A stretch of 63,850 nt of DNA, counting the filler, from Folioceros fuciformis (Eukaryota), in the NCBI GenBank assembly GCA_049999805.1. It is 12 parts of 12 records of this genome, joined end to end, with 100 filler letters (N's around TTAATTAATTAA, not from the genome) between each part and the next. Parts side by side here need not be neighbours in the genome. Positions count along the whole stretch, not along the records: positions 1 to 26,518 come from JBNGIO010004891.1; 11 more parts are not named here. The stretch is one strand, 5' to 3'. Below, in pieces: positions 1 through 53,471 of the stretch. Numbering within the stretch: position 1 is the first letter of the stretch; each line of letters starts with the position of its first letter. Position numbers and translations under genes: made by a program. The notes beneath the pieces were generated by a model. The model saw nothing but the letters and a program-made list of their open reading frames with translations. It did no database searches and was not told where the DNA came from.

Positions 1-47
1 TAAGAGGCCCTAATGAATAGTGCCCTAAATCTAGACTTATTTCATCA
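1..47 (-). repeat. Start of the 3' LTR of element A
   Basis: Exact match to 7673-7719; on the minus strand it is preceded by the polypurine tract. Confidence 0.95.
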
Positions 48-231
48 CTCCCACTCACTATGAATGCAGGGATGAATTCTAGCTTTTAAATGAGGCCTAT
101 AACATATATAAGCTCATAGGTGATGATAATTTAGGTAAAGAAAAGAAAAGAAAATAATACTATATGCATCTTATAGCATGGTGTGGCAAGATAGGGTGTC
201 AATATACCGGGGCTGTATCAGAACTCCGTAG

Positions 232-393
232 TTAAGTACCCCACTACCCGGATCAGTACTCAGATGGGGGGCTTAAGTACCCCACTACCCGGATCAGTAC
301 TCGGATGGGGGGCTGGTGACTGCTCCGCGTTTTGAAAACCCATAATATGCACAGTTAAGCTCCTTCCTGATGAATCAGTACCGGGATGGGGGA
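232..393. repeat. 41-bp tandem duplication plus a degenerate third copy in the 3' internal region of element A
   Basis: TTAAGTACCCCACTACCCGGATCAGTACTC(A/G)GATGGGGGGC at 232-272 and 273-313; related copy at about 355-393. Confidence 0.9.
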
Positions 394-828
394 CCATTGA
401 TTGGAGCCCCCCAAATAGGAATAATGAAAAGGGCTCAAAAAGGCCCTTAAATAGTAATAAAGGAGGATAAGGCTGAAAAGAAGACCCCGCTACGCGATTG
501 GCGGGCGGGAAAAACTGGTACATTAGTTATGGCCGGCCACAGGCCACGAGGAGCATGCTGGCCGGCCACGAGGAGCGCGCCAAGAGGGAAAGCCGTCGTT
601 ATCGGCCTTCCCCGAATTTGGAGGCGCGCTCCATGGCTGCACTTTTGATCAGGCTGGAATCCCGCTGATGCGCGCTGATTGTAGAGGGTACTCCCACGCC
701 ACTGTAGAAGATACTGCCGCGCCGCGCCGCGCGCCTGGGCAGCACCTGGATTGCTCCTGTATTGCAGTGATTGGGCTGTTGCTAGATCGGTAAAAGTCTG
801 CCACTATTCATCAGTGTATGCAAATTTT

Positions 829-2219
829 ATGCTGAGGGTAGAGCGCGAGTGGATTGCTGCCACTCCTGTTGCTAATAAGCTGTATTTGAATTTGCTGTGT
901 GCAAAAGGTGAGTAGCCGCAACACTCCTTAATATTGCCTTTCATGTTGATAATGGTGGCAGGACCCCGTCGTGCGATGCATCACATGATGGAAAGTGAAA
1001 GTGCCCATGCCCCCCCCGGTGCATCGAGGGACGGGAAAAGAAAAAGGAAGACAAGCCGAAGGAAGAAATTAGCGGCAAGGAGGGAGAAAGGTGCCTTAAA
1101 CCGCCAAGCGGCGCATGCTCGCATCCTGGGATACGAGAAAATACCAACATCTGGTCCTGGGCGACATATAGAAGAGGGTGAAGATGACCCTAATTTTGAT
1201 GCTGATTTCTTGCATGTATGTGCCTTGGCTGCTAACACATGTGATGCCGAAGAAGTAGAAGAGGAGGATCTATTGGTGATCCAAACCCACATAGGGAACA
1301 CGGAAGTGGTAGTAAAGGAAATCAAAAATACCATAGAGGCTAGTAAGTAAATACTAAGCTGTAATAATAGCACCATATATATTGCTGAAGAATAATAAAA
1401 TTATCGAAAATGCAGCTGAAATCATAGGGCAGCAGCCGATAGCTCCCACTCTCCATAAGGACGGGATCCCAATAAATAAATGTGCTGAGGCAGCATCTGC
1501 AGAATATCCGGAATTCGACAACGTCGAAATAGAGGAAAAGTCGGAGGAGTCCGGGTATGCCGCAACAGATAATATAGACCCCAAGTCAGCGATATGTGAG
1601 GGAAGTCCAAGCTGGAGGTCATACCCTAGTGCTAATAGTCCTCTTGACAATGGGGAGATAATTAAAACGGAAACAGCAATGACAGAGGGAAATAATAAAA
1701 GTGAGTAGGAAAAGAGGTAAGGGTACAGATGGGTGCCAGAGAAAAATATGCTTCCTAACAAAATCTACTGTTGTTGCAGGTGTAGACAAATGTGTGGGCA
1801 CTGACCATCTAAGAATGGCTATACCAGTACCAATGATCCAAGGAAAAACAAACGGAAAAAGAAAAATACCTAAGTCCTTTTTACCAGCTGGGAGCCTATC
1901 TAAAGCTACCTATATGATATTTCCAGGGAAACCAGAGGATCATGAGGCTCCCATGGAATATGTGTGTGACAAAAAGGGAATAAAAATGATGTGGTTAGGA
2001 GCATCTCCGTGTGAAGAGTATGAAGGACATACAAAACACATATATAGTAAGGTTCCCAACGACTTAACTATGTTAGTTATCATCATTTTCATCTCTTAAC
2101 CAATTAACCTTAATGCAGGATCGTTTTGGGCACTAGAGAGAGAAGAAAGGGAGTACAGTGAAGATTACTTAGAACTAGAAGCTGAACTTGAAATGCTAGA
2201 TGACCTCTGTGGTTTATAG
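829..2219 (+). CDS. Antisense spliced accessory gene inside element A (370 aa from ATG 829, or 339 aa from ATG 976); basic NLS-like patch, acidic tracts, Cys/His domain
   Basis: Exons 829-907, 962-1342, 1416-1700, 1780-2046, 2119-2219. Introns of 54, 73, 79 and 72 nt, all phase 1, donors GTGAGT/GTAAGT/GTGAGT/GTAAGG, acceptors all GCAG. The spliced frame has no stop and joins track ORFs 934-1350, 1382-1708 and 1701-2099. Start codon uncertain. Confidence 0.8.
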
Positions 2220-5200
2220 TTAGGTTTGCTTAACTAATAGGTCAGTCATAACTTCACGGATGCCCAAAGTTTTCATATGTCTGAGGTGTAAATCCCTGCC
2301 TAATGACTTGGTTAATAAATCAGCTGGATTTTCCTGGGTTGGTTTATAATTTATATCTATTGTCTTATTTTCTAACATCTCACGTATGTAATGATACTCC
2401 ACAGCTATATGCTTTGTCCTGGAGTGGAAGACAGGGTTTCTAGCTAAAGCTATCGCTCCCTGACTATCACTGAAAAGAGGTGTGGGCTCATTTTGAGGAT
2501 AACACAACTCACTCAATGCTAGCCTACTCCAGACTATGTCCTTCGAGACTGAGGTTAGTACTCTATACTCTGACTCGGTACTTGACAAAGCAATAGTAGG
2601 TTGTTTCTTACTTGACCATGAGATGGGAGCACCTGCAAGTAGTAGGACGTAACCTGATACTGATTTTCGACTATCTGGGTCTCCAGCATAGTCAGCATCG
2701 GCATATGCCTTTATTTGTAACTTGGATATGCCTGATGTTTGTTTATATTTGAGCCCTGTGTGCATAGTCCCTTTGAGATACCTGAAAATCCTCTTGACGC
2801 ATTGCCAATGTTGTTTGCCAGGATTCTCCAAAAATTGTGAGACCGCACTAACTTCAAATGATATATCAGGTCTTGTGAAGTTACTCAAATAGATTAATGT
2901 ACCAACAGCGTGTCTATATGGTACTGCTGACATCTCGATTTTTTCAGCTTCAGTCTTAGGGCTCATTTGTAAAGTGAGCTTGATGCCACTAGGAAAAGGT
3001 GTGGCAGCGGGTTTAGCGTCTTCTAGTCCAAACTTGGCTAAACTCTCTTTTATATATTTTGTTTGAATTAGGGAGATAGATTTGTCATTTCTATCTCTAA
3101 TAATATTAACTCCTAAGGCATAGGTAAGTTCTCCCAAATCTGTCATTTCATAATGACTTCTTAACCAAGCTTTAATCTCAGCTAGGTGTGAAAGGGAGGA
3201 TGATGCCAAAAATAAATCATCCACATAAAGTAATAGATAAACTGTATTTTGTTTTGTCTTCAATATATATAAGCTTGCATCAGCCTTACTTTGAACAAAA
3301 CCATATGTAATCAGCTTATCATGTATTACATTGTTCCATTCCTTGCCAGATTGCTTTAAGCCATAAATGCCTTTTATTAATTTGCATACCATGTTTTCTT
3401 TGCCTTTAACTTCATATCCCTCAGGTTGCTTCATANNNNNNNNNNNNNNNNNNNNNNNNNNNNNNNNNNNNNNNNNNNNNNNNNNNNNNNNNNNNNNNNN
3501 NNNNNNNNNNNNNNNNNNNNNNNNNNNNNNNNNNNGAGCGGATAAGGCAATTATAATTCTGAGAGAGGCAAACTTAGCTACTAGAGCATAAGTAGCCCAG
3601 GGTATGTAATCTAAACCCGGTATCTGGGTAAAACCTCTGGCTACTAGTCTTGCCTTATATCTCTCAATGGAACCATCACCCTTTCGTTTAATTTTAAAGA
3701 CCCATTTACTCCCTACGATTTTTCTCCCTTTGGGTGGTTTAACTAATTCCCATGTAGAATTCTTAACTAGGGAATCATACTCAGAGTCCACTGCAGCTTT
3801 CCATAAGTCCTTCTCGGGAGAAGTGAAAGCTTGTTTAAGGGTCAGTGGCTCTTCAGGATCAATTGTAGCTTTGTAAACAGATTGATAAAAATGGGAGAAA
3901 GGTGAGGAGGGATCATCAAAAGTGGTGAGGTATCCTAAAGGTGGTTCCTTCCATCCTGCAGGGCCAGAAATAACAGGTCTGGTCCTTAGGTTGTACCTTG
4001 GTGCAGGTTGCTCTACGTCGTCGACGATTGGATTCTCTGTGTGTACAATATCTTCATGTGCTGGTTCTTGTAATGAAGGAACCAGTTCCTCAATATCCGG
4101 ATAGTCAGGCTCATAAATATCATCCAGGTGTTGAGGAATTTCCAGATCTGGATCTGGAGTAGTAGGTCGTCGCGGAGAAGATGGCTCCTCCTCCTCCTGC
4201 ACAATAGGTTCAACTGGAGGAGAGGAAGGAAAAGATTGAATGCTGATAAACTCATCATCATCAAAAGATGTGGGTACAGTATTGTCGTCAGGAACATAGA
4301 CAGAAGAGTAGGAGTCCACTGGGGAGAAGAGTGGAGATTCATGAAAAGTAACGCTGCGGGCATAAATGAGTTTCCTTGTAGCTGGATCAAATAACTTGTA
4401 TCCTTTAATACCTTCTGTATAACCAATAAAGGTGTACTTGGCAGCCTTATTATCGAACTTCTTACGCTGTGCTTTAGGAATATAAACATATGCCGTACAG
4501 CCAAAAACCCGAAGGTGGTCGATGGAAGGCTTTCTGCCAATGAATGCTTCATAAGGTGTCATACCCCGAACTGCTGAGGTGGGCAGTCGATTGAGAAGAT
4601 ATGTTGCCGTTATCATTGCTTCTGCCCAATATGGTTTAACTAACCGGGCTTGGGAAAGCAAGCAACCTGTTATCTCTTGAAGACGTAGATTCTTATTTTC
4701 TGCTACGCCGTTTTGCTGAGGGGTATAAACCACCGTGAATTGCTGAGCAATACCTTGAGCTCGACAAAAATCTGTAAAAGCATTAGAGATAAACTCGCCT
4801 CCATTATCGGAACGGAGGGTTTTGAGTTTCTTCTCTGTAAGTCGTTCTGCCCACATCATGTAATCCTTGAAGTATTGAAAAGCTTCACTTTTGTGCTTGA
4901 GGATTGTGGTAAAACGGGAATAATCATCAATAAAAGTAATAAAATATCTGCAGCCGCTGAAAGATGGTGCAGAAATTGGGCCACAAATGTCGGTGTGAAC
5001 CAACTCTAAGGGTACCTTGGCCCGCTGAGGAGAATTGTTTTTGAAAGGGGCTTGATGTCTTTTAGTAAGGACACAAGCTTCACACCATGATAATGGTTCT
5101 ATCTTTGGAAGGGAAGGGTGTCTATAAAGGTTTCCCTTAGACATTTGGACAAGCTTTTGGCTATTAGGATGTCCTAATCTACAATGCCAAAGTAAAGTAG

Positions 5201-6677
5201 TGTTGGACGTGATAGAGTTCTGAGAAGCTAAATTAACTCTATCATGTGATGATTCTACTTGGACTGCAAGTTTATATAACCCGTCCTCTATTGTGCCTGT
5301 GCAGATATTGAGAGATTCACTAGGAGAGTAAGTGAGAAGACAACTATCTGCATCTAAAATGACTTGTATGTTATGTTCTATGCATAAACAAGTAGCTGAC
5401 ACTAAATTCTTACACATGGCTGGTACATGAAGAACATTGGAAAGAACAAGGATTTGACCAGAAGAACATCTGAGTTTTATCGAACCTATACCAGAAATAG
5501 GAAGGTTATGATCATCACCTAATAAGACACTCTGATGTCCTGTAACAGAATTATAAGATTGATACAGACGTCTATTATTACAGATGTGTGCAGTGGCTCC
5601 ACTATCCAAGTACCAGTTTGGATTTGATGACTTTGATGAAGTCAAACATACAGTTAGAGCCGAAGGTGTTGTGGAAGATGTCTTCTTCACAGCTATATGA
5701 GCTCCAGGCGCAGCCTCTTTTCTAGGCTCACCATTTTTCTTCTTGTAACAGTCCTTCTCCAGGTGGTTTGGTATTCTGCACCAATTACAAATGATGCCTT
5801 TCTTCTTGGTACCTTTAGCAGGTGTTGAAGAAGAAGTCTCTCGTCTTCGAGAGTTGTCATTGGAAGTCTGGGGTCGATATGAAGTGGAACCTCGGCCTCT
5901 GCCTCGTCCTCTTCCATTACCCCTTCCAGTGAACATCACCTGTTGCTTATTGGTTCTGGAGTGTCGCCGACTTGATTCCTCTTGCATCAATGCTCCTATG
6001 AGCTCGGCGATGCTGAGCTTAATTTCTGCTTGTGGATTCTCATCTGCCTCACGTCTTGCATTACGGAGAACAGCATTTTGAGTTGTAACAAAAGCTCTAT
6101 AAGACGGCGGTAAAGATGATAGAAGGATAACATATGCTTCCAACTCATGGACAGGAATGCCACTTGCAGCCTCAAGTTGAGATCTTGCTAGTCGGAAATT
6201 ACTAATATGGCGTTCAATGGAATCGGACTCCTTCATTTGAAGGTTGCGGAAATTACGGGAGGCGGCAACAATACTCATAACATCCATGGAGGAGTAGAGT
6301 TGAGCAAGGTGAGTCCACATGTCGTGGGAGGTCTTTGCATGACCAACTTGTATCACCATCTGCTCCGAAAGTCCACTGATGATAAGGTCTTGTGCCTTCT
6401 CGTCCCTGACGTCCCAGGACGTTCGAAGGTGTACTTCAAATCTTTCAGTGGGTCTGGGAAGTCTTCCTTCGACTATGTCCCAGAGATCTCGTTGTCGCAA
6501 GGCTCCTTTCATCCGTATAGCCCAAACATAATAATTCTTTCCATTGAACCTATCCTTCTCTTTGAAGCTGTCACCATAATGATTAATCAAGGTATGATTA
6601 GAACTCCCAGAAGGATCCATCATGGGTGTATTTGGTGACGCTGAAAATTCTTCTTCAATATTAGATACTCCAGCCAT
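2220..6677 (-). CDS. Copia Gag-Pol polyprotein (Gag, CCHC knuckle, protease, integrase, RT, RNase H)
   Basis: CNWCRIPNHLEKDC knuckle; WYLDSGA protease; WHCRLGH..CEAC; integrase HTDICGP/RSDNGGEF/NGVAE; RT YVDD; RNase H DADYAGD, TESEY, ADLLTK. The 100-N gap at 3436-3535 lies in RT. Confidence 0.97.
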   Translation of the reverse strand: MAGVSNIEEEFSASPNTPMMDPSGSSNHTLINHYGDSFKEKDRFNGKNYYVWAIRMKGALRQRDLWDIVEGRLPRPTERFEVHLRTSWDVRDEKAQDLIISGLSEQMVIQVGHAKTSHDMWTHLAQLYSSMDVMSIVAASRNFRNLQMKESDSIERHISNFRLARSQLEAASGIPVHELEAYVILLSSLPPSYRAFVTTQNAVLRNARREADENPQAEIKLSIAELIGALMQEESSRRHSRTNKQQVMFTGRGNGRGRGRGRGSTSYRPQTSNDNSRRRETSSSTPAKGTKKKGIICNWCRIPNHLEKDCYKKKNGEPRKEAAPGAHIAVKKTSSTTPSALTVCLTSSKSSNPNWYLDSGATAHICNNRRLYQSYNSVTGHQSVLLGDDHNLPISGIGSIKLRCSSGQILVLSNVLHVPAMCKNLVSATCLCIEHNIQVILDADSCLLTYSPSESLNICTGTIEDGLYKLAVQVESSHDRVNLASQNSITSNTTLLWHCRLGHPNSQKLVQMSKGNLYRHPSLPKIEPLSWCEACVLTKRHQAPFKNNSPQRAKVPLELVHTDICGPISAPSFSGCRYFITFIDDYSRFTTILKHKSEAFQYFKDYMMWAERLTEKKLKTLRSDNGGEFISNAFTDFCRAQGIAQQFTVVYTPQQNGVAENKNLRLQEITGCLLSQARLVKPYWAEAMITATYLLNRLPTSAVRGMTPYEAFIGRKPSIDHLRVFGCTAYVYIPKAQRKKFDNKAAKYTFIGYTEGIKGYKLFDPATRKLIYARSVTFHESPLFSPVDSYSSVYVPDDNTVPTSFDDDEFISIQSFPSSPPVEPIVQEEEEPSSPRRPTTPDPDLEIPQHLDDIYEPDYPDIEELVPSLQEPAHEDIVHTENPIVDDVEQPAPRYNLRTRPVISGPAGWKEPPLGYLTTFDDPSSPFSHFYQSVYKATIDPEEPLTLKQAFTSPEKDLWKAAVDSEYDSLVKNSTWELVKPPKGRKIVGSKWVFKIKRKGDGSIERYKARLVARGFTQIPGLDYIPWATYALVAKFASLRIIIALSAXXXXXXXXXXXXXXXXXXXXXXXXXXXXXXXXXXMKQPEGYEVKGKENMVCKLIKGIYGLKQSGKEWNNVIHDKLITYGFVQSKADASLYILKTKQNTVYLLLYVDDLFLASSSLSHLAEIKAWLRSHYEMTDLGELTYALGVNIIRDRNDKSISLIQTKYIKESLAKFGLEDAKPAATPFPSGIKLTLQMSPKTEAEKIEMSAVPYRHAVGTLIYLSNFTRPDISFEVSAVSQFLENPGKQHWQCVKRIFRYLKGTMHTGLKYKQTSGISKLQIKAYADADYAGDPDSRKSVSGYVLLLAGAPISWSSKKQPTIALSSTESEYRVLTSVSKDIVWSRLALSELCYPQNEPTPLFSDSQGAIALARNPVFHSRTKHIAVEYHYIREMLENKTIDINYKPTQENPADLLTKSLGRDLHLRHMKTLGIREVMTDLLVKQT

Positions 6678-6687
6678 AGCAGGTGAT

Positions 6688-7263
6688 CTAGAGGACTAAG
6701 CCTCGGCGGTACAGCTTTCCATCTTCTCTATTGCAAGCTCGAAACTCCTCCCTTGCATGGTAACCTGCATCAGGAGATGATGACCTACTAGAAAGTTCCT
6801 GCACATCTTTGAATTTAGAGAGATTGGACACCCTTACCCCAAGTTCTGTTAGTTTTCTCTTGAATTCAAGATGTTGAATTGTTAGAGAAGATAATTCTCT
6901 ATCTAGGTCATGAATTTGGTGAGTTTCTATATTTTGGCCTTGTAGACAAAAGAATTTAGAAGCGTTAGCACCAGCTCTCAAATTAGGGATATGTTGAATA
7001 GCTAATTCTAAGGCCTTAACATGGATTGGGCTAAATACTTCTAGCAAATCACATCTAGCAAGCTTAATCAACTTCCCTTGGTCTGGTTTAGAAATTAGAA
7101 TAGATGCAATGAAGTTAGCTATGCGAGAAGATATCTCATCTATCTCTCTTGCTATAATTTGTGAACTTCTATTGCTCTTAATCCTAACTTGATCTTGTTG
7201 TCTTGCAGGGCAATTTCTTTTCCTAATTCTAGGCCTCCTCCTATTAAAATAAATCAAATTCAT
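6688..7263 (-). CDS. Extra sense ORF (191 aa) between PBS and gag; basic N-terminus, probably helical/coiled-coil
   Basis: ATG-initiated 191-codon frame in AT-rich DNA, ending 10 nt before the gag ATG. A similarly placed ORF precedes another gag at 52824-53357. Confidence 0.6.
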   Translation of the reverse strand: MNLIYFNRRRPRIRKRNCPARQQDQVRIKSNRSSQIIAREIDEISSRIANFIASILISKPDQGKLIKLARCDLLEVFSPIHVKALELAIQHIPNLRAGANASKFFCLQGQNIETHQIHDLDRELSSLTIQHLEFKRKLTELGVRVSNLSKFKDVQELSSRSSSPDAGYHAREEFRACNREDGKLYRRGLVL

Positions 7264-7454
7264 AAAGAGGAGACGAAGAATTAGTGCATATGAACATTAT
7301 GGGAAAAGAGATATTTGCATGAGAAGAAAACATAAGAGAGCAGCAATTATAAAAGAGACACAATCCATCTAGCGAGGTGCTAGATTGGAAAAGATGTCTC
7401 CTAGATGCGCTCCTTAAATGCTTAAAGCTGCACTTGCATAATGAAGAGCAAGAT

Positions 7455-7466
7455 GCTCTGATACCA
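7455..7466 (-). promoter_or_regulatory. Primer-binding site, tRNA-iMet
   Basis: TGGTATCAGAGC directly after the 5' LTR. Confidence 0.95.
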
Positions 7467-7719
7467 TGATGAAAATCTAGCCTTGCTCTTAGATGCAAAT
7501 CTTAGAATGTAATTGAATGTATATAAGAAGTAAAGTACAAGCCTTTATATAGGCTAGGTAGTTGGGCGGTTACAACTATAAGTGGTTGTAACCATAAGTA
7601 GTTGTAACCGTAAGTGGTTATAACCACTATAGCTAATAACTACCTAAATAACCCTAGGTAGATAATTAAAGGTAAGAGGCCCTAATGAATAGTGCCCTAA
7701 ATCTAGACTTATTTCATCA
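7467..7719 (-). repeat. 5' LTR of element A (253 bp)
   Basis: TG...CA ends with 8-bp terminal inverted repeat; TATA-like TATATAAA; internal 16-bp repeats of TAAGT(G/A)GTT(G/A)TAACC at about 7578-7625. Confidence 0.95.
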
Positions 7720-9865
7720 CCAATCCACCGACCACACTCGAGAAACACCCAAGCCCATCAAACTCGCTGATCAGCACCGCACTTCTGCCGCCTGAACTCA
7801 CTCCACTCTCCACCAACCTCTGGGGTCCCTTCTGCATCAAGACCAGGAACTCGGGTCGATTCAAGCGCTGTTCTTCATCATCTGCCACTCCACCCTAGTG
7901 CAGATTGCGCCATCTGTTAGCCCCAAACTCGGGAACCTCCCCACTATAACCATCATCGTGGCCTCCCCTCCCTGAAGGAGAGTGAGCAGTGCCTCCAGGT
8001 GTTCCATCTAGCAACATGTCGGACGCCCCACCGGAGAGGCGATGACCCAAAACTCCTTCTCTAGTCATTGAGCTCCTCCCATCCAGACGCGCATGCTCCC
8101 CTGGCCATCCCGACAGGCAGCTACCCACCACTCTAGTCGCGTCCTCTTGGCAAGGAGACGGCTCGGCAACAAGGTCCTTACCGCCTGAGGGGGATTTGAC
8201 CTGCAACTTGTAAGGCAGAGAATCACCTCATTTCCTAGCCTTCTTCGCCCCTACAACCTTCCGGTTCTTCCCGCCCAGGACCTAATTAGAACTCGCAGAG
8301 AGTGCTAGCACCTTGGCACCTGCACCTGATCGCGACGGTTCTGCAAGACGTGCTCCAAGGTGTTGGGGGTTATCTAGGCTTGCCTCCGTCGATGAGGAGG
8401 AGGTGCGCTTGGGGATACTCTTGAGCAACCCTGCCGACCCAAGGCCTGCCTCACTAAGATCCTTACCTCCTACCGGCCCGTTCCTTAAGTCACCTAAGGG
8501 TCTCTGCTTAGCAAAAACACCACCCTGCACCACCGCCTTTGCACCTGCCAACATCGTAAGATTGGATTCAGTGCTTATACTTGTCTTCACAGCACCCTGC
8601 ACCTGCTCCTGCTGGTCAAGACCACCCTACACCTGCTCCAGCTGGTCAAGACCTTCTTGTGGACCAAAATAATGGAAGGAAACCGGTTTTTGAAGCTCTA
8701 CATCCATCAGCACAGCCTGGTCTTCCTCCATGTCCTCCTTCCATCTGAGCTCCCATTCTCCTGGAAGCTTAATTGTAATCGGTGAGGTTAGCAATCCGAA
8801 GAAGCCCAGATGAGCCTTAAACACTATTCTGGTGGCAAGAGTGACCCGAACTCTGCCGAACTTAGCATCCTTGACTAAGGTAAGCACCTTCGACTCCCCC
8901 ATCCACTACGTTTGAGTTCAGCGAGAAAACATGACTTCGAGGGGAGCTTCACCCTAAACCCCATCCACTGCGGCTTGTTGGAGATCGGGATCCGATTCTC
9001 CCTCCCCAAGTCCAGCAATGTGCTGAAGTATGGAATCGCAGAGGAACCTTTGATTCTGTGACAAATTGCACTGAACCTAGCCTCCTTTAAAAGCTTGCAT
9101 GCGTACTCTTCCCCCGCACCCAGACCCTCTTGTACCATACTCATGGCCCTCAGCCTGACAGTCTCCCACAGCCCAGCCATACGAACTTCCTCTGCGATTC
9201 CTAGCTGCAGTGACCGAGTAGGTAAGGCTTGCAACTCCTCCCTTTTCGGCATCCAGAAGTAGAAGGTGTTCTCCACCTTCTTCCTCATGATGAAACAGGT
9301 TTTCACCTGGGTGATGGTTGCGTCAACAAGCCTTGGGAAGAAGTTTTCCTGGATTCGGCGAGCCCACCTCTACGTAGCCAAGTTAGCTCTCCAAGGCTTC
9401 TTCTGAATTCCTTGAAACCCCCGGTAGGGGTTCAGACTGTGTCTTCGCAGAGTTGACACTCCTGCCGCCTTCTAGACCTAAGCGAAGCGGACAATCTCGT
9501 TTAAGAAGGTTAGTCAGACCACATACTCCGCATCTAATAGGAAGACCAAGGTAATCAAAAAGTTGCGTGTAGCTCTTTGAGGAATCTGCCGAATAACAAA
9601 CCACCACCCCAGCGGGCAACGAGGAGAGGTTGTCTACTCTTACACCAAAGCGGGGCAGCTTGTTCCTGTCAAAAAACAGGGAGTCCACCTGTGGCACTTC
9701 AACCACCCGTCCAATGGTTTCCAACATCCTGTTGATCAGTGGAATAAGTTGCGTCAGTTAGGCAGGCAACCGCACTCAAACAAAGCGCCTCTTGATTTGG
9801 GACTGCATAATTGTACTGCCGAGAGACCAAGCCTCAACCATCATCGGGGTTGAGCCTCTGAAAAG
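7720..9865 (-). mobile_element. Decayed L1-type LINE ORF1 region (host site of element A)
   Basis: DUF4283-like end (VEAWS...FV*VRLP) followed by IGRVVEV...YLGLPIRCGVCGLTNLLKRDCP, a CX2CX4HX4C knuckle with His replaced by Leu; many stops. Confidence 0.7.
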
Positions 9866-18596: not shown

Positions 18597-20010
18597 ATGC
18601 AGCAGGGAAGGCCGGCACTCGATTTTGGGCGAGGGCTCCAGGAATTTGCGCACAGCGCGGGGGAGGTGTGGCGCAATTTCGCGCACTCTGTTTCTCGCGC
18701 TCTGGAATTGGACGAGGAGGCGGGGGAGAGATGNNNNNNNNNNNNNNNNNNNNNNNNNNNNNNNNNNNNNNNNNNNNNNNNNNNNNNNNNNNNNNNNNNN
18801 NNNNNNNNNNNNNNNNNNNNNNNNNNNNNNNNNTCTCCAGACGGGATCGGCAGCGGAGGCTTAGAGACGTCTCGGCAGTAGACGGCAGGCTGGTGCAGGA
18901 TGTGCAGGATGCGCGGGAGGCGCGGATTGTGGACGCGGAGAGGAGGAATGTGGGAGGGGAGGTGAGCCAGCAGCTGAGCTCTGTTTCCGCGGCGAGCGGG
19001 ATGGGGATGCTGGTGGTGCCGCAGGACGCGGAGGTGGAGGTGAGTTTGCTTGAATTGAGTAGGTTTGTTTTGTCTTTGGTGTGTGGGCATTGTCACGTCG
19101 CTCACGCGCTCTGGTTCTCTTGTGTGGCGTCAGTCGAGGTCGGGGAATGCGGTCAGTAAGGAGGAGCTGGGCCGCGCTACCTGGACTTTTCTGCACACGC
19201 TTGCCGCTCAGGTCCTAGTCAGTGCTTGTGCTGCTGAGTTGAGATGATGAGTTGTGAGTGATGATGGTGAGCTATGACGGGCTTGAGCAGCAGCGTCTCT
19301 CCACAGAAATCAGGTTGCCGATTCTGTCAGCTTGTCTTGTCTGCATCCTGCTTAGTGTTTCTGTCTGCTGCTACGTGACGGGTAGGGTTTTTCAAACCCT
19401 CATTGCCTCCTGCTCGTGTTTCATCAGTTTCCTGATAAGCCGACTCGACAGCAGCAGCGGGATGTGAAAGAACTGGTGAGTAGGGACATGCTGCTATGCT
19501 CGTCCAGTTTCATCATTGGTACGCGACTCTTCGCTGTGCTGACGAGGCCTTTCTAGGTGCTGACGTTTTCTGTTCTGTAGATGCTCATCTTGTCGAGGAT
19601 GTATCCTTGCAAAGTGTGCGCGGATCACTTCAAAGATGTGTTGAAGTAAAGGACCACTGTTTTCGCATGCGGCCTCTGCTTTCATTCGTGGTTTCCGGTC
19701 CTTCCGAGCTGACAACTTTTGTGTTCCTCTCAGAACGAATCCGGTACAGGCAGGGTCAGGGGCAGACCTCGCCCAGTGGATGTGTCGTGTCCACAACGTT
19801 GTGAACAGAAGGTACGAGCTTGGTGCTCTTTGTTTTGCGCCTGCTTTGTCGTCCAGTGCAAGTAGGATGTTTTGAGGGCCGCTGAAGCTTTGTCTTTTTC
19901 TCAGCTTAGGCAAGACTCAGTTTCCCTGTAGACGAGTAGACGCCCGATGGGGGGCGTTGGAGTGTGACGAGGGTGCCTGTGACTTGGAGGGTCGGATTTA
20001 CAGAAAGTAG
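18597..20010 (+). CDS. ERV1: FAD-linked sulfhydryl oxidase Erv1/ALR, plant type
   Basis: Exons 18597-19039 (spans an N gap), 19134-19211, 19428-19475, 19581-19645, 19734-19811, 19905-20010. Motifs KEELGRATWTFLHTLAAQ, redox YPCKVC, structural CX16C (WMCRVHNVVNRSLGKTQFPC), C-terminal shuttle CDEGAC. Confidence 0.95.
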
Positions 20011-26518: not shown

Positions 26519-26618
26519 NNNNNNNNNNNNNNNNNNNNNNNNNNNNNNNNNNNNNNNNNNNNTTAATTAATTAANNNNNNNNNNNNNNNNNNNNNNNNNN
26601 NNNNNNNNNNNNNNNNNN
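26519..26618. other. Artificial contig linker N44-TTAATTAATTAA-N44 (first of 11)
   Basis: The same 100-nt spacer with stops in all six frames starts at 26519, 29290, 32648, 35029, 39962, 44381, 47624, 49269, 53372, 59368 and 62136. Confidence 0.97.
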
Positions 26619-40061: not shown

Positions 40062-40560
40062 CCACCCTGATCATCCTATTTAATCTAGCCTTATATAACA
40101 TAGTTTCCTAATTACCTCTCCAAGGAATTCTATCAAAACTCCAAGAAAAACAAATACCACCCATTTTCTAAGAGTCCTATCTACCATGTGGTCTCCACAC
40201 CCTATAATTGACATTTATTCCCTCACGAATCTCCATGTAGATGGTGTGATCAAGATCCTCATGTAGAAAAAGTTGTCTTGATGTCAAGTTGCATTAACTT
40301 ATAATCGTGGTGAGATGCTAAAGCTAAGAGAATCCTATGTGAGGTTATCTTGAGTATGGGATGAAAAGTTTCATCGTAGTCAAAACCATACTTATGAGAA
40401 TATCCCTTTGCCATTAGTCTAGCTTTGTATCTTTTTATGCTACCATCTGTATTTAACTTAATCTTAAAAGTCCACTTGCAACCCACTAATTTTCTATCGT
40501 TAAATAGGCTAGTTAAGGTCTAGGTCTTATTAGCTTTTCAATCACCTATCTTACAAAATT
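40062..40560 (-). mobile_element. Old copia RT fragment
   Basis: GCKWTFKIK...RYKARLMAKGY...QLDIKT. Confidence 0.8.
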
Positions 40561-40672
40561 TATAGCCAATTAAGGCATGAAATAACCACAACTTTTGTCC
40601 TTCCCCTCTCTTCAAGATATAACTACTTTCAGTGCCTTGGTGTAACACCTCTAGCATCTTTGGCTTTTGCAA

Positions 40673-40762
40673 GCAGGTTGCAGCCTTCCAAGTTAGCATG
40701 TTGCAGCCTTCCAAGTTAGCAGGTTGCAGCCTTCCAAGTTAGCAGGTTGAAGCCTTCCAAGT
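40673..40762. repeat. 23-bp tandem repeat, 4 copies
   Basis: GCAGGTTGCAGCCTTCCAAGTTA. Confidence 0.92.
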
Positions 40763-41041
40763 CTGTTTCCTTTTTGGAGAATCTTCAAAGTCATTGTCCA
40801 ATTTGAGTAAATGGCCTTGAAATGTGGACAATGCATCATTAGCACATTTTCGTGCTTGCAACTATTTAACTTGGAGAAGCAACATAGTTTTGTTGCATGA
40901 GTATGCTCAAGCAAGGAAGCATTACTGTGCACCATTCCCTACACTTCTTTCCACATATTTTCCAAGCTCTAGTATGAAGCAATTAACAAATATTGGATTG
41001 GATTGGTGTAGACCAATTGCTATAATAAACAATCACATTAT

Positions 41042-42410
41042 TGATAAAGAGAATATTACAATAAGAGCACTATGTTAAAGTGGCTCACTCAACTTAAGTT
41101 GTTGTGAAGAGACATAACCTTCCATTAAGGGACATGACTCTTAATGAAGGGGCAATTAAAATGATAATCATAATAACCCTGTACACACATACTATAAATG
41201 CTAACATTACTAAAACCTAATAAATCAGCACCTATTCTCATCACTCCCACTTGCCCATTATTATGGGTCGGTCAGTCTTCTCCTTCGCGAATAGCCTGTG
41301 GAGACTCTGAGTTCAGCTAGGCTTCTTGCTTGAGCGTGTGTGTGTACCCTGTGTGGCATAGGCTCCCAATGGAGCGGGACAGTTTGAAGTTAGCTCTGTA
41401 TAGGTTTGCTATTTTAGTAGCTCTTGTTTACGCCCCATGCCTTATAGCGGCTAGGCTCATAGGGCACAGCCTCAACACCTCAAAGAACATGGCGTCTTCA
41501 GGATCTGAGGAAAGCGCGTCTTCTACGAAGTGGCGTTTTTACCAACGGAATCAGTTCGGGCGCTTCCCAGCAGTGGCAGCTAGAGCAACTGCCTTTGTGG
41601 AAGGCGCAAGAGCGCATCAATCTGCACAAACAGCAAGATAGAGTACAAGGAGAGCAAGCAGCTCAGGACGGCCGTGAGGGACACCTCGAGGCACCACCAG
41701 GGCTGTGCTTGAAGCAAGACGCCAGGAACCTGCATCAGGGACAGCAGCAGTGACGGCGGCTACTGCATCTTCTCATCATACCCGCTTGACTTCAGGCTTC
41801 AAGACTGGTCAATCTACAGCGGCTGCGCAACAGCCTCAATCCCGCACAACGCCGACTGCTTCCATGGGAGGTCTGAGGGATAGGTCCAGTGAAGAAGTCC
41901 ATTCAAGGGCTATAGTGGAAAGACGGCGCTACAATCGTGGTGAGTTTGAGTATGCCGATTCTGACCAGCGCCCTCCTGTTCCGCCCTGGTTCCCAATTCC
42001 TGCATGTATGATGTCAGAAACGAGAATCGTAACCCCTGGCAATTGGGAGACACCTGGAAGTCCTCTCTGGTACAGGTGCTCCACTACTGGATTGGTGATG
42101 AAACGAATTGAGCTACAGCTATGTCGGGAATACAAGGATCACATTATCAACGTCTATAGTAAGTCCTCACACCAACTCTCATATGTTCTTCTGCACTTTA
42201 AAAACAGCCAATATAGGCCTATCTACTTTACCTGGAAAGGTCCTAACCCCTTGCTGACCTGTGTCGATTGCCTGTGAACCATACTCCCACTATCCTTCAA
42301 GCAGGGTCTGAAGATAGATTGGAAGAAGAGAATAGTCTTGAAACAAAAGAGAGACTTTCTTATCACGAGAGGAGGAAAAGGTTTTCTCCTCGCGATGAGA
42401 ATGAGACTTT
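41042..42410 (-). mobile_element. 3' part of an element A-like copia (element A2): 3' LTR 41042-41243, PPT, antisense-gene region
   Basis: PPT/LTR junction AAGTGGGAG|TGATGAGA, compared with AGTGGGAG|TGATGAAA in element A; truncated by the insertion at 42411; its own pol is not in the window. Confidence 0.75.
41489..42410 (+). pseudogene. Antisense accessory gene of element A2, homolog of 829-2219
   Basis: Track ORFs 41330-41641 and 41705-42277 share one frame, broken by TAG 41639 and TGA 41675. Domain 41981-42157 aligns with 1869-2045. Phase-1 donor GTAAGT at 42159; probable acceptor at 42304. Confidence 0.72.
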
Positions 42411-44380
42411 TGTTAAAATCCTAGCAGTAGGATTGCATCTAATCTAGCATGATTAGGATTGCATCTAGTCTAACATGATCAAGGTGCAATGCTCAGAGAG
42501 ATATTTCGTGTTAGTCTCTAAAAAGTGTATACAAAGTGTGTCTTAAATAGTATCACTAGGTGTCTCTTCCGAAGAGGCACACCCGTTTGTAATTATTAAC
42601 TACTATTAATTACGGTCTACGGTAACTAGCTAGTCAACAGGGTTACGGGCAGATTATCCATTCCATAACACTCTCTCTTAAGCTGAATGTAACCTGACAA
42701 GTGATGGAGGCTATCTCCCATGGAGTGCGACACTCCTCTTTGATATGCTCCCTCTGAAGGCTAATGAGAGCCCGTACATGCCGCCTTGAGGCACGGCACT
42801 GAAGGGGCACAGGTCAGGATTTCTAGTCCTGAAAAGGTAGCATGACCCTCTTGAAGCAAGCATCTTAAGGTGGCCTTGCTTCAGCGGCTAAGTCATGGAG
42901 ACCAGGTTCTTGCCCATTTATGGGACTAGGAGCACAGGCTCCAAGGTAAGCACCGAACCGTCCTCGAGGGGAAATTCGCAAGTGCCTTGTCCCATGATTG
43001 GTAGGTTGGATCTACTCTATTCGTCACCAAGTAACACCCTTTCCTTGAGAGGACGAGTATCCAGCTTGGTGAATAGAGTACGATTGTTGCATATGTGGGC
43101 AGTGGCTCTACTGTCGAGATACCACCCCGCATCCTGATGCAACTGGGTGTTGAGGCAAGTCGTAAGTATCTTTACGGTTCTTGTCTCCACTGTGTTGGCG
43201 TTCCGCTTAACACCAATACTCGCTACCTGTCACAAGTCAGCCTTCTGCGGCTCTCCGGCCTCTTTCTTGCTGCACTCTTGTGCCCAATGGCCGGCAGCTC
43301 CGCACCAATTGCAGTTTCCAGCTCGGCAAGGAGGGGCAACAGTTGAATCAGCTTTAGGGGTGAAGTTTGCCTCGCCCTTCAAATTCCTCCCGAGTTTGAG
43401 GCGAGTGGAAAGCGCCCTGTCTGCTTTGGGCTTGGACCCTCCTGCAGAACATAAGTGGCTCTGCTCCTGCTGATACAGAGCACCGTTGATGTCCTCCACT
43501 GTTAGGGTGGGGGCGGTACCTGCCTTACCCTAAGTTGATACCAACATCAGGCTGGTAACAAAATTGTGGTAAGACGGTGGTAAGCTCATTAGCAGCTGTG
43601 CAGCGGCATCGGTCTCCGACATGGTTGAGCCAAGGGAGGCGAGCTGCCCTCGCAGCTGTGTGAACTTCAAGGTGTGAGCAGAGATCGTATCTGTCTCCTT
43701 CATCCTTAAGGAGTTGAATTCCTGCCTTATACTATACAAGGTTAGAACATTGCTAACATTGTAGGTGTTAAACAACTGGTCCCAGATGGCAGATGCATCT
43801 GAGAGAAATTCAACACTAGGCACAAGACTTGAATCCAGGCCGCTGATCAAGAGTGCCACAACTATCCCATTCAAATAGTCCCATCTCTCAACGACGGCGA
43901 CTGGCGGGGGGTGGAGTGGCAGAAGGGTCGGGCTTTGGAAGGGTGCCGTCGACGATCTTCCAAATGCCTCGGCCAATAAGGATTGACTTCATCCGAACGC
44001 GCCACACAGGGTAGTGTTGGCCGTTAAATCAGTCTTTCTCTCTAATGTGGTCGGTGAAGACGGGAATTGAGCCGGTGGAGGGAGTACTAGCCATGGTAGC
44101 CAATGGCATAAGCGAAAGGGTTGTATAAGTTGATTCACCATGTCTCCGTAAGTTGTGGTCATAGGACATCAAGTTGAGTCCTCATCATGGGCTGTTGGTG
44201 TGGCAGGTGAACGAAAAAACAAGGGGTCCAGAGATGCCGGTCGCTCTGTCGGGGAGACGGGCTCGATCTTCACCTATGGGCAGAGTTCGCCTACCTGGTT
44301 GTTTGTAAATGCAGCAAGTGTGGGGCCTCCAAGATAGGTTGAGGTGTGAGGGCGGGTTTGAAACTGAACCGGTTCAAAGG
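42411..44380 (-). mobile_element. Gag-protease-only copia derivative (TR-GAG-like): 3' LTR 42411-42670, PPT 42671-42680
   Basis: Gag from ATG 44094 (EKD*FNGQHYPVW..RMK), CNWCGAAGHWAQEC, protease WYLDSRATAHIC, then PPT TAAGAGAGAG and a TGTTA...TAACA LTR; no INT, RT or RH. Confidence 0.8.
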
Positions 44381-49368: not shown

Positions 49369-51502
49369 AGATGAAAGTTTTGCATGCTCAATGGGTTGTC
49401 AGGGCAGCGGATCCGACATACTACCCTTGGAAGAGTCTGCTAACATAGTACTTGGACGGCACCCAAGCTGTCCCCAGGGGTAGGAGGTCTATGGACAACA
49501 TTCTGGCTGACAAACCGCTGCTGGATACTACAGGATGCTCCCCGCTCTTTAAGTCCATCTGGAATAGTTACTTGGAGGTCAAACATTATCTTATCCCGGG
49601 CACTTTCTCTCATTTGGATGATGTTCTGGGCATTCCTTTGCAGGGCTTCTCAAGATTATGTTAGAAATCAAGCTCTAACTGAATTGTTATTAAGAGCATA
49701 CAACACTTAGGATAGTGTAGATTATCCCATATTGAACTCGTAGTTATCTATCACCTAAGTGTTATCAGGATATATCAAGATATACTAGGATATTGCACCC
49801 TCGAGACTAAGGCTTACCTTATCGAGGGTTGCCCCGCCTGAATGCTATATATGTAGCATCCTGTGCATCATAAGTAAGGAACTGTGGAGTCCTTCTTGGC
49901 CTGTGGTGCTATTTCAACAGGTTATGGGTACGGGAGTTCAGGCCAAAGGTTTATCGGTCACAAATTTTTGGGCTGGTCTGTCACAAAGGCGTTATCCAGC
50001 TTGGGCATTTATGGAATAGATCAGAGTCCCGCTAGAAGGAGGTGGAAAAGGTCAGAAGGGAGTTTGGCGTAGGGGCCCGGCACGTCAGACTCTTATTCTC
50101 GTGGTTGCACGAGGGGCTAGAGGAAAAGGTACATTAGATCCTAAGGCAACAACCTACCATAGGCGAGGAAGGGTGGTTTGCTTACTCCATGGATAGTAGG
50201 GGAGTCAACTCGGAGGAGGAGGATGAACAGGACGAAGCATAAGAGCTAGACAGGGCGATTTGGCTTGCGAGAGCTGACGGCAAAGAGACGTTGAAGTCGT
50301 TCAAGGTCTTGTCGCCTAACGGCTCTTTGGAAGTGCAAGGTAGGGACAACGGTGAAGGCCGAGGGGGGGAAATGCGAACTATTACTGTAATCTGTTGGTC
50401 CGTTCGGGCAGGGCGGTGGTACACGTTTAGCGAACGCCCAATTGGGCCACGAACCTCTGATAAAGCAAAGGTTCTATGCTGGTTCTGATTGGGTGAAAAC
50501 TAGGCTCTGACCTTCAGACCAGATCTCTACAGGTGGCCCAAGCGTCCGGGGTGCAAGAAGGCTACTTCTCGATCTTTCTTCAACTCCCCAACGGCGGACC
50601 TCTTCCTTTGGTTGGTGCGAGCGCAGAAAATCAAACAAAGACAAGCAATGGCTCCCCGCCTGAGGTTAACTGGACGGCGCCAAAAGGAAGCCATCAAGCT
50701 CCTATGGCACTCCGCAGGAGTCCCTCCCAAGGTCTACAGTTTGGTGTTCTTTCAAGCATGTTTGCCTAATGCAGATCGTTGGGATGGGCTTCTTACTGCA
50801 ACGGGGGAGGACGTGTGTCGATTGTGCACCGATGGTGCCCCGAACAAGAGTCAACACATGTTCTTTCACTGCTGTTTTGCCCAAGAGATTTGGGGGGAGG
50901 TGAATAGGTGGCTTCAATTGATTTTTCCTGGAGCTAACCTCAAGATCATGAGTCAATCAGCCTTATTTGGGCTGGACGCAGCCTAGGGCAAACCTCTCCT
51001 AAAGACCCAATGGTGGGGCTTACTGTGGTCCTCTTGTCTTTTCTATCTCTGGGTCAATTGGTCCGCGGTGGTTTATGGAGGATAGGAGTCAGCTTCAGTG
51101 AAAGCTCTGTTATGGCGCATATGGGAGCATTTATTGATTGCAGCAGAAGCCTTGGAGCAATCAAGCCGGAAGCAATTTAAGCGGAAAGACTGGAGGATGG
51201 CCGGCTTCCTTTCGCTTGGGAAAGATACGGGTTGGAATCACTCGTGCCCCTGGGGAAGGTGAGTCTTTAGGGTCTTTGAGAGACTTTGAAGGGTGTGTAT
51301 CAGTGTTTTAGGTAGGCGGCGGGTACCATAGTGTAAGGGAGCACTCTCTGTACGCCTTGTCTTGAGCTTTGGTCTTAAGGCTAGTCCTCCCCCCTCTCTT
51401 TTGGTGCTTGATATATGTCCATTCATTAGCAGGGGGTTCCCATTGCATTGTAAGTGGGACGAGTCTTCCACTTATAATCAGAATTATTTTCTTCGTGAAA
51501 AA
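49369..51502 (+). mobile_element. L1 LINE ORF2 3' region and 3' UTR
   Basis: QWVVRA...PWK, CRLC......SQHMFFHCCFAQEIW; ends near a short A-run at about 51500. Confidence 0.85.
49659..49919. repeat. Solo LTR (261 bp) inserted in the LINE
   Basis: TGTTAGAAAT...ATTTCAACA; flanks GATTA/GGTTA. Removing it restores QGFSRLWVREF, collinear with the 36.2-kb LINE copy. Confidence 0.88.
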
Positions 51503-52820
51503 CCTGTGCCGACTTCTTCTTTGGTGCACGCACTGTATGTGCTTCAGGAGCTACAGCAGCACCTTCCTTCCTAGGCTCTCCGGCCTTCTTCTTGCGGCAA
51601 TCACGGGCCCAATGGCCAAGTATTCCACACTAGTTGCAGTTTCCTGCTCACATCTGACTGCTTGAGCTCTGTCCAGGTCCGCTTGACCTTCCTTCTCGAC
51701 TTGCATTCCATGAACCCCCTCTGCCTTGCTTAAAGGGTTTTCCCCTACCGTCAAACAGGGCTTGCTGACCCTGTGTCTGCTGTCTTCCAGATTTGGAGGA
51801 CAACCTCGTGGCTTCCTCCTGCAGCATAGCACCAACAACACCGTTAAATGTCATGGGATCTAAGTCTATCTTCAAGGCTTTTGAGATTCTGGCTTCGACC
51901 TTTGCCATAGCCTACTGGCCAGTAACAAACTGCCCAAAACTTGGAGGTCATGAGCTTAGCAGTCTGCATGCTGCTTCACAGTCAGTGACTTTAATGCTTG
52001 TGGAGCTCTGCACTACGAAATCTAGCAATGTAGTGCTCAACTAACTCTCCCTCTGTCATCCGCAGGCCATGGTACCTTGCAGAGGCGGACATGGACGTGG
52101 CCATGTCGTGGGAGGCGAACATCCTTGCCAAATGATCCCACATGTCCTTGGCTAAGGCCCCTGGGCCATCGGAAGCCTAACGTAGCATCTCTGGAGCCAG
52201 GCCTGACCTGATGAGGTTCCTGGCTTTGATGTCTGCAATGCTCCACACTGGGAAGTCAGATGAGGTTACTTCAGGCTTTGGAGATGTAGCCTGACCTAAT
52301 GAGGTTCCTGGCTTTGATGTCTGCAATGCTCCACACTGGGAAGTCAGCTGAGGTTACTTCAGGCTTTGGAGATGTAGCTTGACCTAATGAGGTTCCTGGC
52401 TTTAATGTCTGCAATGCTCCACACTGGGAAGTCAGCTGAGGTTACTTCAGGCTTTGGTACATCTCCTCTTACCATGCCCCATAGGTTTTTCTCTTCAAGA
52501 GTTCCTTGCATTCGTATAACCCATGTGTCATATTCATTGCCTGTGACCAAACAGTCCTTCTCTTTAAAACCACCGCTGGTCATTGACTGCAGAGTAGCAA
52601 GCATTTCGTCCCTTGCTTTATCGTCTTCATCCATGTTGAAGTTTCTAAAGAACCGGTAATTCTCGTGTGAGAGTTTTGTGTTCACCGATGCACGGTCAAG
52701 ATCCACATCAACTTGTGTGTTCAAGTCATCATCTTCATCACTAAACTCAAAGAGTCCAACTTCCTGCGCAAGCTTCCTCAGCAATTCAGGTGTAGTATAT
52801 AAGCTCTCCTGCTCACTCAT
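51503..52820 (-). mobile_element. Degenerate copia gag with an internal 88-bp triplication (52201-52458)
   Basis: FKEKD...W.IRMQG.L....LW.MV.G..PKP; knuckle remnant CE...HG..DC at about 51600-51650. Confidence 0.85.
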
Positions 52821-52823
52821 AAA

Positions 52824-53357
52824 TCAACAGCTCTCAACATGAGCTGAGTCGACTTGCCTTGACTGACACACTGCACAGGTTGGACGATACTGCCTGGACT
52901 GACTTGTCTGAGTGGCTCTCTCATTTTCCTGCAACTGTGGCTTCATGAGTACAAAGATTTTCAGGTCTATCTGTTTAAGGTGTTCTTCTAACCTAGCAAT
53001 GTTGTATGTCAGGGAATCCAAGATGGTGAGGATGTGTTGTGTACGACACAAGGCTGTGCTATTAATGTTGTCCAGACGATGGGTTAAATTCTCAACTGCA
53101 GCAGTGAGAGACTCTCCAGTTTCTATTATATATGGCTGAAACTGCTGTCGTGACTCGGGTTCCCTCTGCCTGCCTAGCATAGACTTATGGTAAGCATGAA
53201 TGCTTGGATTAGACGTAGCTAGGTTAGGAATACGCTCATACTGCTGATGATTAACAGACCTCCTACTTCTAGGCAATGGGAAGTTTGAGATTTCGTAAGG
53301 TGGGACGGGATGTATAGTCCTTTACTGATTGCCTCCATTGTAGCGACATTGAGCCAT
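52824..53357 (-). CDS. Extra sense ORF upstream of gag (coiled-coil-like, CAVC near the end); one early stop
   Basis: ATG 53357, TAA 53324, then open to TGA 52824, which is 3 nt before the gag ATG. Confidence 0.5.
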
Positions 53358-53471
53358 TCTAAGGGACAGGANNNNNNNNNNNNNNNNNNNNNNNNNNNNN
53401 NNNNNNNNNNNNNNNTTAATTAATTAANNNNNNNNNNNNNNNNNNNNNNNNNNNNNNNNNNNNNNNNNNNN

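Follow-up and report, generated by a model that had tools for sequence, protein, structure and literature searches.

Does the region between pol and the 3′ long terminal repeat (LTR) of a Ty1/copia retrotransposon hold a gene of its own, and on which strand would it lie? This question is raised by a 63,850-nt window of DNA from Folioceros fuciformis (assembly GCA_049999805.1), the whole stretch analyzed here, in which the minus strand of the first 7.7 kb is such an element. An earlier note, made from the sequence, had described in its 2.2-kb region downstream of pol an antisense gene of five exons and four introns. Our analysis indicated, with a probability of about 70 to 75%, that this is a genuine intron-containing element gene under selection and an integral part of the Ty1/copia element. 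Twelve 100-base linkers (44 N + TTAATTAATTAA + 44 N; the first at 26519-26618) mark the window as a chain of small unplaced contigs, so that neighbors across a linker are not truly adjacent; plain 100-N gaps occur at 3436-3535 and 18734-18833.

A five-exon open frame opposite gag-pol

Five plus-strand exons of 79, 381, 285, 267, and 101 nt join into 1113 nt without an internal stop, giving 370 codons followed by TAG at 2217-2219 (Table 1), although the longest unbroken frame within them has only 144 codons. Within the element, the frame is antisense to gag-pol and convergent with it, and it occupies part of the ~2.2 kb that separate the pol stop (2220-2222) from the polypurine tract (PPT). All four introns are phase 1, with GTRAG donors and GCAG acceptors; their G+C content is 36%, versus 45% in the exons, and retention of any single intron leads to an in-frame stop within 3 to 18 codons. 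The exons, introns, phases, and splice signals named in the earlier note were all found in the sequence, and the 370-residue product contains both the basic stretch KRKRKTSRRKK and the acidic C-terminus claimed for it.

To compare the extent of this frame with chance, we sought the longest path free of stops by dynamic programming, with at most four introns of 50 to 90 nt and GTRAG...YAG signals. The longest path in 829-2219 was 1112 nt, whereas 300 dinucleotide-preserving shuffles reached a maximum of 419 nt (mean, 221 nt) under the same strict signals; with bare GT...AG, the shuffled maximum rose to 758 nt, and none of the 300 attained 1112 nt. Elsewhere in the window, 56 tiles served as controls, and only two scored higher, both bearing copia pol open reading frames (ORFs). 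When the search was run blind on 49-2219, with as many as seven introns allowed and a traceback, it returned exactly the same four introns and no further strict-signal exon upstream. The four-intron model was thus recovered by a best-path search and lay beyond all shuffles.

At 2217-2222, the TAG that ends the antisense gene (plus strand) and the TAA that ends pol (minus strand) abut with zero bases between them, and any 3′ untranslated region (UTR) of either transcript would therefore overlap the coding region of the other. The lengths of exons 2, 3, and 4 are all divisible by three; as all introns are phase 1, skipping any of these exons would keep the frame, and in-frame isoforms are possible. 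Tandem repeats are present upstream of the gene, one of 41 nt (two copies) at 232-314 and one of 23 nt (1.9 copies) at 680-723.

Related copies and a second element family

Related copies were sampled from DNA contigs of runs X1 and X2 of one sample (58 records per run). The family's own contig spans 903-1994 and differs from the window at two positions, both synonymous; in exon 3, the two differences from the runs (1621 and 1663) are likewise synonymous. Diverged copies (85 to 95% alike) stack over the final ~140 nt of exon 4, where as many as seven contigs carry the same alternative letter. They remain similar to the end of exon 4 and beyond it up to 2051, five bases into intron 4 (after GTAAG), from where four contigs continue unlike the window. 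One contig per run joins 1977-2051 to pol at 2287-2500 through 250 unlike letters (235 in the window), and the related family therefore has the same layout. When translated by hand in the plus-strand frame, the loose ends read LPGGKDDHE(I/V) before PMEY, where the window reads FPGKPEDHEA, and YMVLPGG, where the window reads YMIFPGK; one copy appears to be short of nine bases, in frame. On the other side of the intron, hand reading of the exon 5 loose ends showed that the acceptor (AG, then GA as the first exon bases) is kept, followed by SFWALERD with two synonymous changes. Seven of the nine exon differences listed were third-position and synonymous, compared with 21 of 26 in the adjoining pol; a hand calculation for at least seven of nine, at a chance of 1/3 each, gave p of ~0.008, with rows that are not independent. 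The earlier note had named conservation of splice sites and frame among copies as a check on the gene, and this held for the frame, the exon 4 donor, and the exon 5 acceptor of related copies but not for exon 1. Signs of a conserved element gene thus bear out the view that the region between pol and the PPT is no filler.

A second, diverged and decayed copia element on contig 40062-44380 carries a homologous C-terminal module (41.2-42.4 kb). The last ~60 codons of an open frame in this paralogue match exon 4 (tblastn E, 0.001; phmmer E, 1.9e-4 among 1567 ORFs), with 18 invariant columns in the alignment, including C-x14-C-x5-H, and its donor falls after the same tyrosine codon as the exon 4 donor, likewise in phase 1. 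The intron is longer (146 nt versus 72 nt for intron 4), and the last exon opens with R-S and an acidic stretch, like exon 5. Upstream of the ~60-codon module, no alignment between the gene and the paralogue was found. An LTR-end/PPT-like stretch at 41221-41251 (84% over 31 nt) precedes the paralogue, and a decayed gag-protease region with most of pol missing adjoins it. Since the gag proteins of the two elements are only 31% identical, the module, its place, its orientation, and its intron position are shared by two families as distant from each other as unrelated copias. So far, the gene is represented by the copy in the window, by several diverged DNA contigs (all from one sample), and by the single paralogue.

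A 26-nt tandem duplication at 42428-42479 spans the stop codon of the paralogue's last exon. Contigs 40062-44380 and 49369-53371 both hold copia gag, the first with in-frame stops, and little or no pol; they may be gag-only non-autonomous derivatives, of which the first keeps the paralogue of the antisense gene.

Alternative readings and a possible function

What weighs against a conserved antisense gene begins with the opposite strand. Beneath exons 2 to 4, the minus strand is open over 139, 136, and 96 codons, and these frames, like a 51-codon minus-strand frame, share third positions with the plus-strand model frame, as expected of shadow frames, so that neither synonymous bias nor codon usage can separate the strands. 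The coding strand might then be the sense strand, holding a decayed SIRE-like env-like ORF downstream of pol, with the plus-strand frames as its shadows. In line with this, a minus-strand chain with bare GT...AG signals extends to 848 nt, slightly over the shuffled maximum of 758 nt, and codon-usage log-odds trained on the window's transposable element genes, while placing the model frame best among the plus-strand frames in all five exons, score a minus-strand frame slightly higher in two of the five. The minus-strand ORFs, however, lie in different frames without a join, and 829-2219 contains six GTRAG motifs on the plus strand (four of them used) but none on the minus strand, where the strict stop-free path does not exceed 419 nt, against 1112 nt on the plus strand. 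The plus-strand peptide of the exon 4 stretch matches the paralogue, whereas the minus-strand shadow-ORF peptides give no match to it. Similarity among related copies begins and ends at plus-strand splice sites, halting at the donor and restarting at the acceptor, and the stop that bounds the minus-strand ORF at 1940-1942 is absent in a related copy (hand reading). The strands are separated by the GTRAG counts and strict path, by the peptide match to the paralogue, and by the similarity that ends at plus-strand splice sites, and a sense-strand gene is very improbable. A chance arrangement can be set aside as practically negligible: short ORFs and GT/AG pairs are common, but the 300 strict shuffles fall far short of the observed path, and the blind search returns the same model. 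A functional antisense RNA that is non-coding, or a cis-acting DNA or RNA signal, with an incidental open frame, has precedents in the non-coding antisense RNAs of micropia and TART and in control based on double-stranded RNA (PMC7264820), and an antisense transcript from this locus would complement the 3′ part of the genomic RNA. A non-coding RNA would not be expected to hold a 1113-nt stop-free path with four precisely phased introns, which 0 of 300 shuffles attained; variation is concentrated at third positions, and peptide similarity outlasts DNA similarity. We regard this reading as quite improbable.

The multi-exon structure with short, host-like introns is also what would be expected if a host gene, or part of one, had been captured once in reverse orientation and carried passively, its introns reflecting a cellular origin. 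Transduced ORFs do occur in LTR retrotransposons (PMC7264820), and our searches found no element-type or viral homologue. Transduced ORFs, however, sit in one or a few copies (PMC7264820), whereas the exon 4/5 module recurs across several diverged contigs and also in a second family, its place, orientation, and intron phase unchanged throughout, and its differences are mostly synonymous, as in pol. Passive carriage is therefore unlikely; an ancient capture since kept by selection belongs with the element gene under selection, the reading we favor. The remaining points on the opposing side concern sampling and the 5′ end. No homologue was available elsewhere to gauge age or function. The conservation data come from one organism, as short contigs of one sample plus one paralogue on a decayed element; the variant sample is small (nine rows, two of them non-synonymous, G>R and V>M), and only ~60 residues and one intron position are comparable across families. 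In one copy from the same organism, 18 other letters stand in place of 801-902, and exon 1 is thus not fixed. The gene model is weakest at exon 1 and the start codon. By hand reading, the 18-letter replacement carries an ATG in the same frame and phase, which is suggestive but has an estimated probability of ~1 in 10 of arising by chance. The reading frame is open upstream of exon 1 as far as 685, and translation may instead begin within exon 2 and yield 339 residues. Within the earlier range of 339 to 370 residues, the spliced frame itself thus stood, and the 370-residue start was the less secure end.

The predicted protein (41 kDa; isoelectric point [pI], 5.3) is hydrophilic, and its parts encoded by exons 3 and 5 are acidic. 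Exon 2 contains the run GKRKRKTSRRKK, which fits the classical monopartite nuclear import signal; to judge from this basic cluster, the product would probably be a nuclear protein, and the acidic tail would be consistent with an activator-like role. Pfam assigned no family to exons 2 to 5 at E values up to 1, and none to the exon 1 frame or the paralogue at E of ≤0.1; neither Transposase_28 (PF04195) nor a related domain was found by Pfam in the product. A bZIP reading of the basic stretch was dropped, as exon 2 had no Pfam match and prolines follow the basic run. Searches outside the window covered single exons, with exon 3 queried by Pfam only and the spliced whole protein not among the queries. 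With phmmer, exon 4 gave two matches among 1.84 billion representatives, both tandem-repeat proteins and judged spurious. Word-based searches were blank for exon 4 (among longer proteins) and exon 2 (among proteins near its length), neither exon matched PDB sequences or the ESM Atlas, and an exon 4 alignment found no related loci in metagenome, genome, and viral contigs. These blank searches weigh little because the libraries hold no close relative of even the organism's own polyprotein, the closest being 40% identical. AlphaFold2 modeling of exon 4 and the paralogue gave a mean predicted local distance difference test (pLDDT) score of 37, and the model was unusable. Rfam had no match in the whole window.

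By analogy, the most likely role of such a protein would be that of an accessory nuclear factor, and a nuclear regulator of the element is a tentative proposal that we hold to be possible rather than probable. Transcription would start either at a promoter of the gene itself within the G+C-richer stretch 61-828 or in the 3′ LTR, running inward, and the transcript would be spliced four times and polyadenylated within the antisense of pol. Its translation would yield an acidic ~41-kDa protein with a basic import cluster, a ~60-residue Cys/His-containing module, and an acidic tail, which could influence, in trans, how its own element family is transcribed or what chromatin state it adopts, a role of the kind proposed for Grande gene23 and HBZ. 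As the antisense mRNA and the 3′ part of the genomic RNA would be complementary, an RNA-level effect could add to that of the protein. The persistence of introns follows a logic established by antisense-intron retrotransposition reporters: introns that are antisense in the genomic RNA are not removed before reverse transcription, and every new copy therefore inherits them. A bolder and more doubtful extension is that a group of copias in this green-lineage organism are "complex" elements in the retroviral sense, in which a spliced antisense gene, passed on with its introns at reverse transcription, would supply a nuclear factor with a new Cys/His-containing module and an acidic tail. This factor would switch transcription of the family or protect it against silencing by the host, as a copia counterpart of HBZ or VANC that surveys for long uninterrupted extra ORFs would miss.

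Known systems, the carrier element, and other features

HBZ of human T-lymphotropic virus 1 (HTLV-1) is a spliced antisense gene near the 3′ LTR whose product, a nuclear regulator, has both basic and acidic regions. By analogy it is the closest counterpart in working principle: our candidate is likewise predicted to be spliced, opposite in strand to gag-pol, near the 3′ LTR, and endowed with basic and acidic regions, and it might share the nuclear role. Unlike HBZ, which is a bZIP protein of a vertebrate retrovirus with one intron, it has four introns; no bZIP or other domain was detected in it, and no sequence relation was found. VANC anti-silencing proteins of VANDAL21 DNA transposons, together with p22 and the antisense RNAs of Ty1, are cases of element-encoded tuning of an element's own silencing or copy number. 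VANC belongs to another element class, and Ty1 control works through a sense-strand Gag fragment and non-coding RNAs; our searches showed no resemblance of our gene to either in sequence or domain, so that the comparison with VANC drawn in the earlier note is an analogy without support. The deltaretroviral antisense genes (HBZ) are mentioned in two reviews (PMC11963269, PMC7264820).

In the sources cited here, the antisense extra ORFs of plant LTR retrotransposons are those of Ty3/gypsy elements, namely Grande, RIRE2, Retand (Transposase_28), and 15 bean families (PMC7264820, PMC11963269, PMC4093653). For copia, the extra ORF named is that of SIRE, env-like and in sense orientation, which 74% of SIRE elements carry (PMC6317226). 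The division drawn in the earlier note between antisense gypsy ORFs and a sense SIRE ORF agrees with the available text of these four sources. Our candidate is like Grande gene23, RIRE2, Retand TRP28, and common-bean ORF2 in its position between pol and the 3′ LTR, its antisense orientation, and its unassigned function. A nuclear protein with its own promoter has been reported for Grande, and within a lineage most copies carry the antisense ORF (PMC7264820, PMC11963269, PMC4093653). The carrier here, however, is Ty1/copia (RVT_2, with integrase before reverse transcriptase) rather than Ty3/gypsy, no Transposase_28 or other Pfam match as in Retand TRP28 is present, and the gene needs four splices, whereas the Tat/Retand antisense ORFs are described as uninterrupted; in the available text of both reviews (PMC7264820, PMC11963269), the word "intron" has no occurrence. 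Like our gene, SIRE eORF-3′F is additional coding sequence placed after pol and before the 3′ LTR in Ty1/copia, but it is a single sense ORF, and no similarity between the two was found. A literature search found no copia antisense gene, although the supplements of PMC6317226, which give ORFs by lineage and orientation, may hold reverse-oriented copia ORFs. As far as the available text of these sources goes, a spliced antisense gene in copia is a new arrangement, antisense extra ORFs so far being those of Ty3/gypsy and some retroviruses.

As a comparison set, 80 metagenome copia loci were fetched with the pol C-terminus (37 to 44% identical). None of the 80 held a homologue of the antisense gene (tblastn, best E of 0.17), and a scan of the 28 loci with at least 1.5 kb after pol found none with a spliced antisense gene inside the element. 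Two loci were considered as further examples and rejected: the high scorer at locus L024 was a nested pol, and the spliced frame at locus L003 lay outside its LTR pair (2413-2642 and 6897-7126). The latter, a five-exon open path of 1229 nt at 7178-8677 of L003 (minus strand), sits just beyond the 3′ LTR in antisense orientation and represents a neighboring gene rather than a component of the element. In the other copia fragments of the window whose pol end is visible, the next feature follows within a few hundred bases.

Little is understood about the extra genes of LTR retrotransposons, including the antisense ones described in Ty3/gypsy elements and retroviruses. If true, a conserved antisense gene in copia would mean that the same strategy arose in both big superfamilies. 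A gene of four splices can escape ORF-based annotation, and this one would fall below the threshold of a large extra-ORF survey, which was at least 250 uninterrupted codons (PMC6317226). At ~1.4 kb, the locus is a compact test case for a retroelement gene expressed against its own genomic RNA and for the effect of its protein on the element, and any function found for the ~60-residue module, which has no known relative, would be new.

The carrier element supports its assignment in the earlier note as an intact-looking Ty1/copia retrotransposon. Its gag-pol frame is open over 1491 codons on the minus strand (6695-2223), with a 100-N gap as the sole interruption, and Pfam placed Retrotran_gag_2 (62-247), Pol_BBD (361-437), rve (562-659), and RVT_2 (979-1234) on the polyprotein, which gives the copia order of gag, protease, integrase, and reverse transcriptase-RNase H. 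The LTR ends are TG..CA, with a primer binding site (PBS) at the 5′ LTR and a PPT at the 3′ LTR, which is cut by the start of the window. The PBS, TGGTATCAGAGC, presumably pairs with initiator tRNA-Met. PMC6317226 is in line with this partner for TGGTATCAGAGC. Positions 1-48 are identical to 7673-7720 at 48 of 48 bases; the claim that the element is young is consistent with this identity and with the intact pol, and its basis is limited to these.

Table 1. Positions of the antisense gene model, its carrier element, and the paralogue within the window
Feature	Position	Strand	Details
Inner part of 3′ LTR	1..47	-	47 bp only; window begins within 3′ LTR
PPT (purine-rich tract) beside 3′ LTR	49..60	-	Read from sequence
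Upstream region, presumed promoter/5′ UTR	61..828	+	50% G+C; TATA-like TATATAA at 105
Exon 1	829..907	+	Holds first in-frame ATG; least certain exon
Intron 1	908..961	+	54 nt; GTGAGT...GCAG; phase 1
Exon 2	962..1342	+	Basic cluster GKRKRKTSRRKK, then acidic tracts
Intron 2	1343..1415	+	73 nt; GTAAGT...GCAG; phase 1; 26% G+C
Exon 3	1416..1700	+	Acidic; pI 4.25
Intron 3	1701..1779	+	79 nt; GTGAGT...GCAG; phase 1; CTAAC 25 nt upstream of acceptor
Exon 4	1780..2046	+	Last ~60 codons, conserved Cys/His-containing module PG..P..Y.C...G..M......C.EY..H....Y
Intron 4	2047..2118	+	72 nt; GTAAGG...GCAG; phase 1; position common to paralogue
Exon 5	2119..2219	+	Acidic tail; stop TAG 2217-2219 abuts pol stop
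gag-pol	2220..6677	-	ATG 6677-6675; stop TAA 2222-2220; 100 N at 3436-3535
AATAAA, putative poly(A) signal	2314..2319	+	95 nt past stop; within antisense of pol
Sense open frame in leader	6688..7296	-	202 codons; between PBS and gag; no family match
PBS TGGTATCAGAGC	7455..7466	-	Directly adjoins 5′ LTR
5′ LTR	7467..7719	-	253 bp; TG...CA ends; TATATAAA at 7551-7544
Paralogue open frame	41678..42158	+	Last ~60 codons match exon 4; ends at phase-1 GTAAGT donor
Paralogue last exon	42305..42447	+	Follows 146-nt intron 42159-42304; hand reading
Decayed copia gag-protease	42726..44058	-	In-frame stops; adjoins paralogue; most of pol missing

The 202-codon sense frame in the 770-nt leader, which runs from the PBS to the gag ATG, had no match in a Pfam search and may be a second extra ORF of the element, 5′ and forward. 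Within the 5′ LTR, a 16-nt tandem repeat of 3.3 copies lies at 7574-7626.

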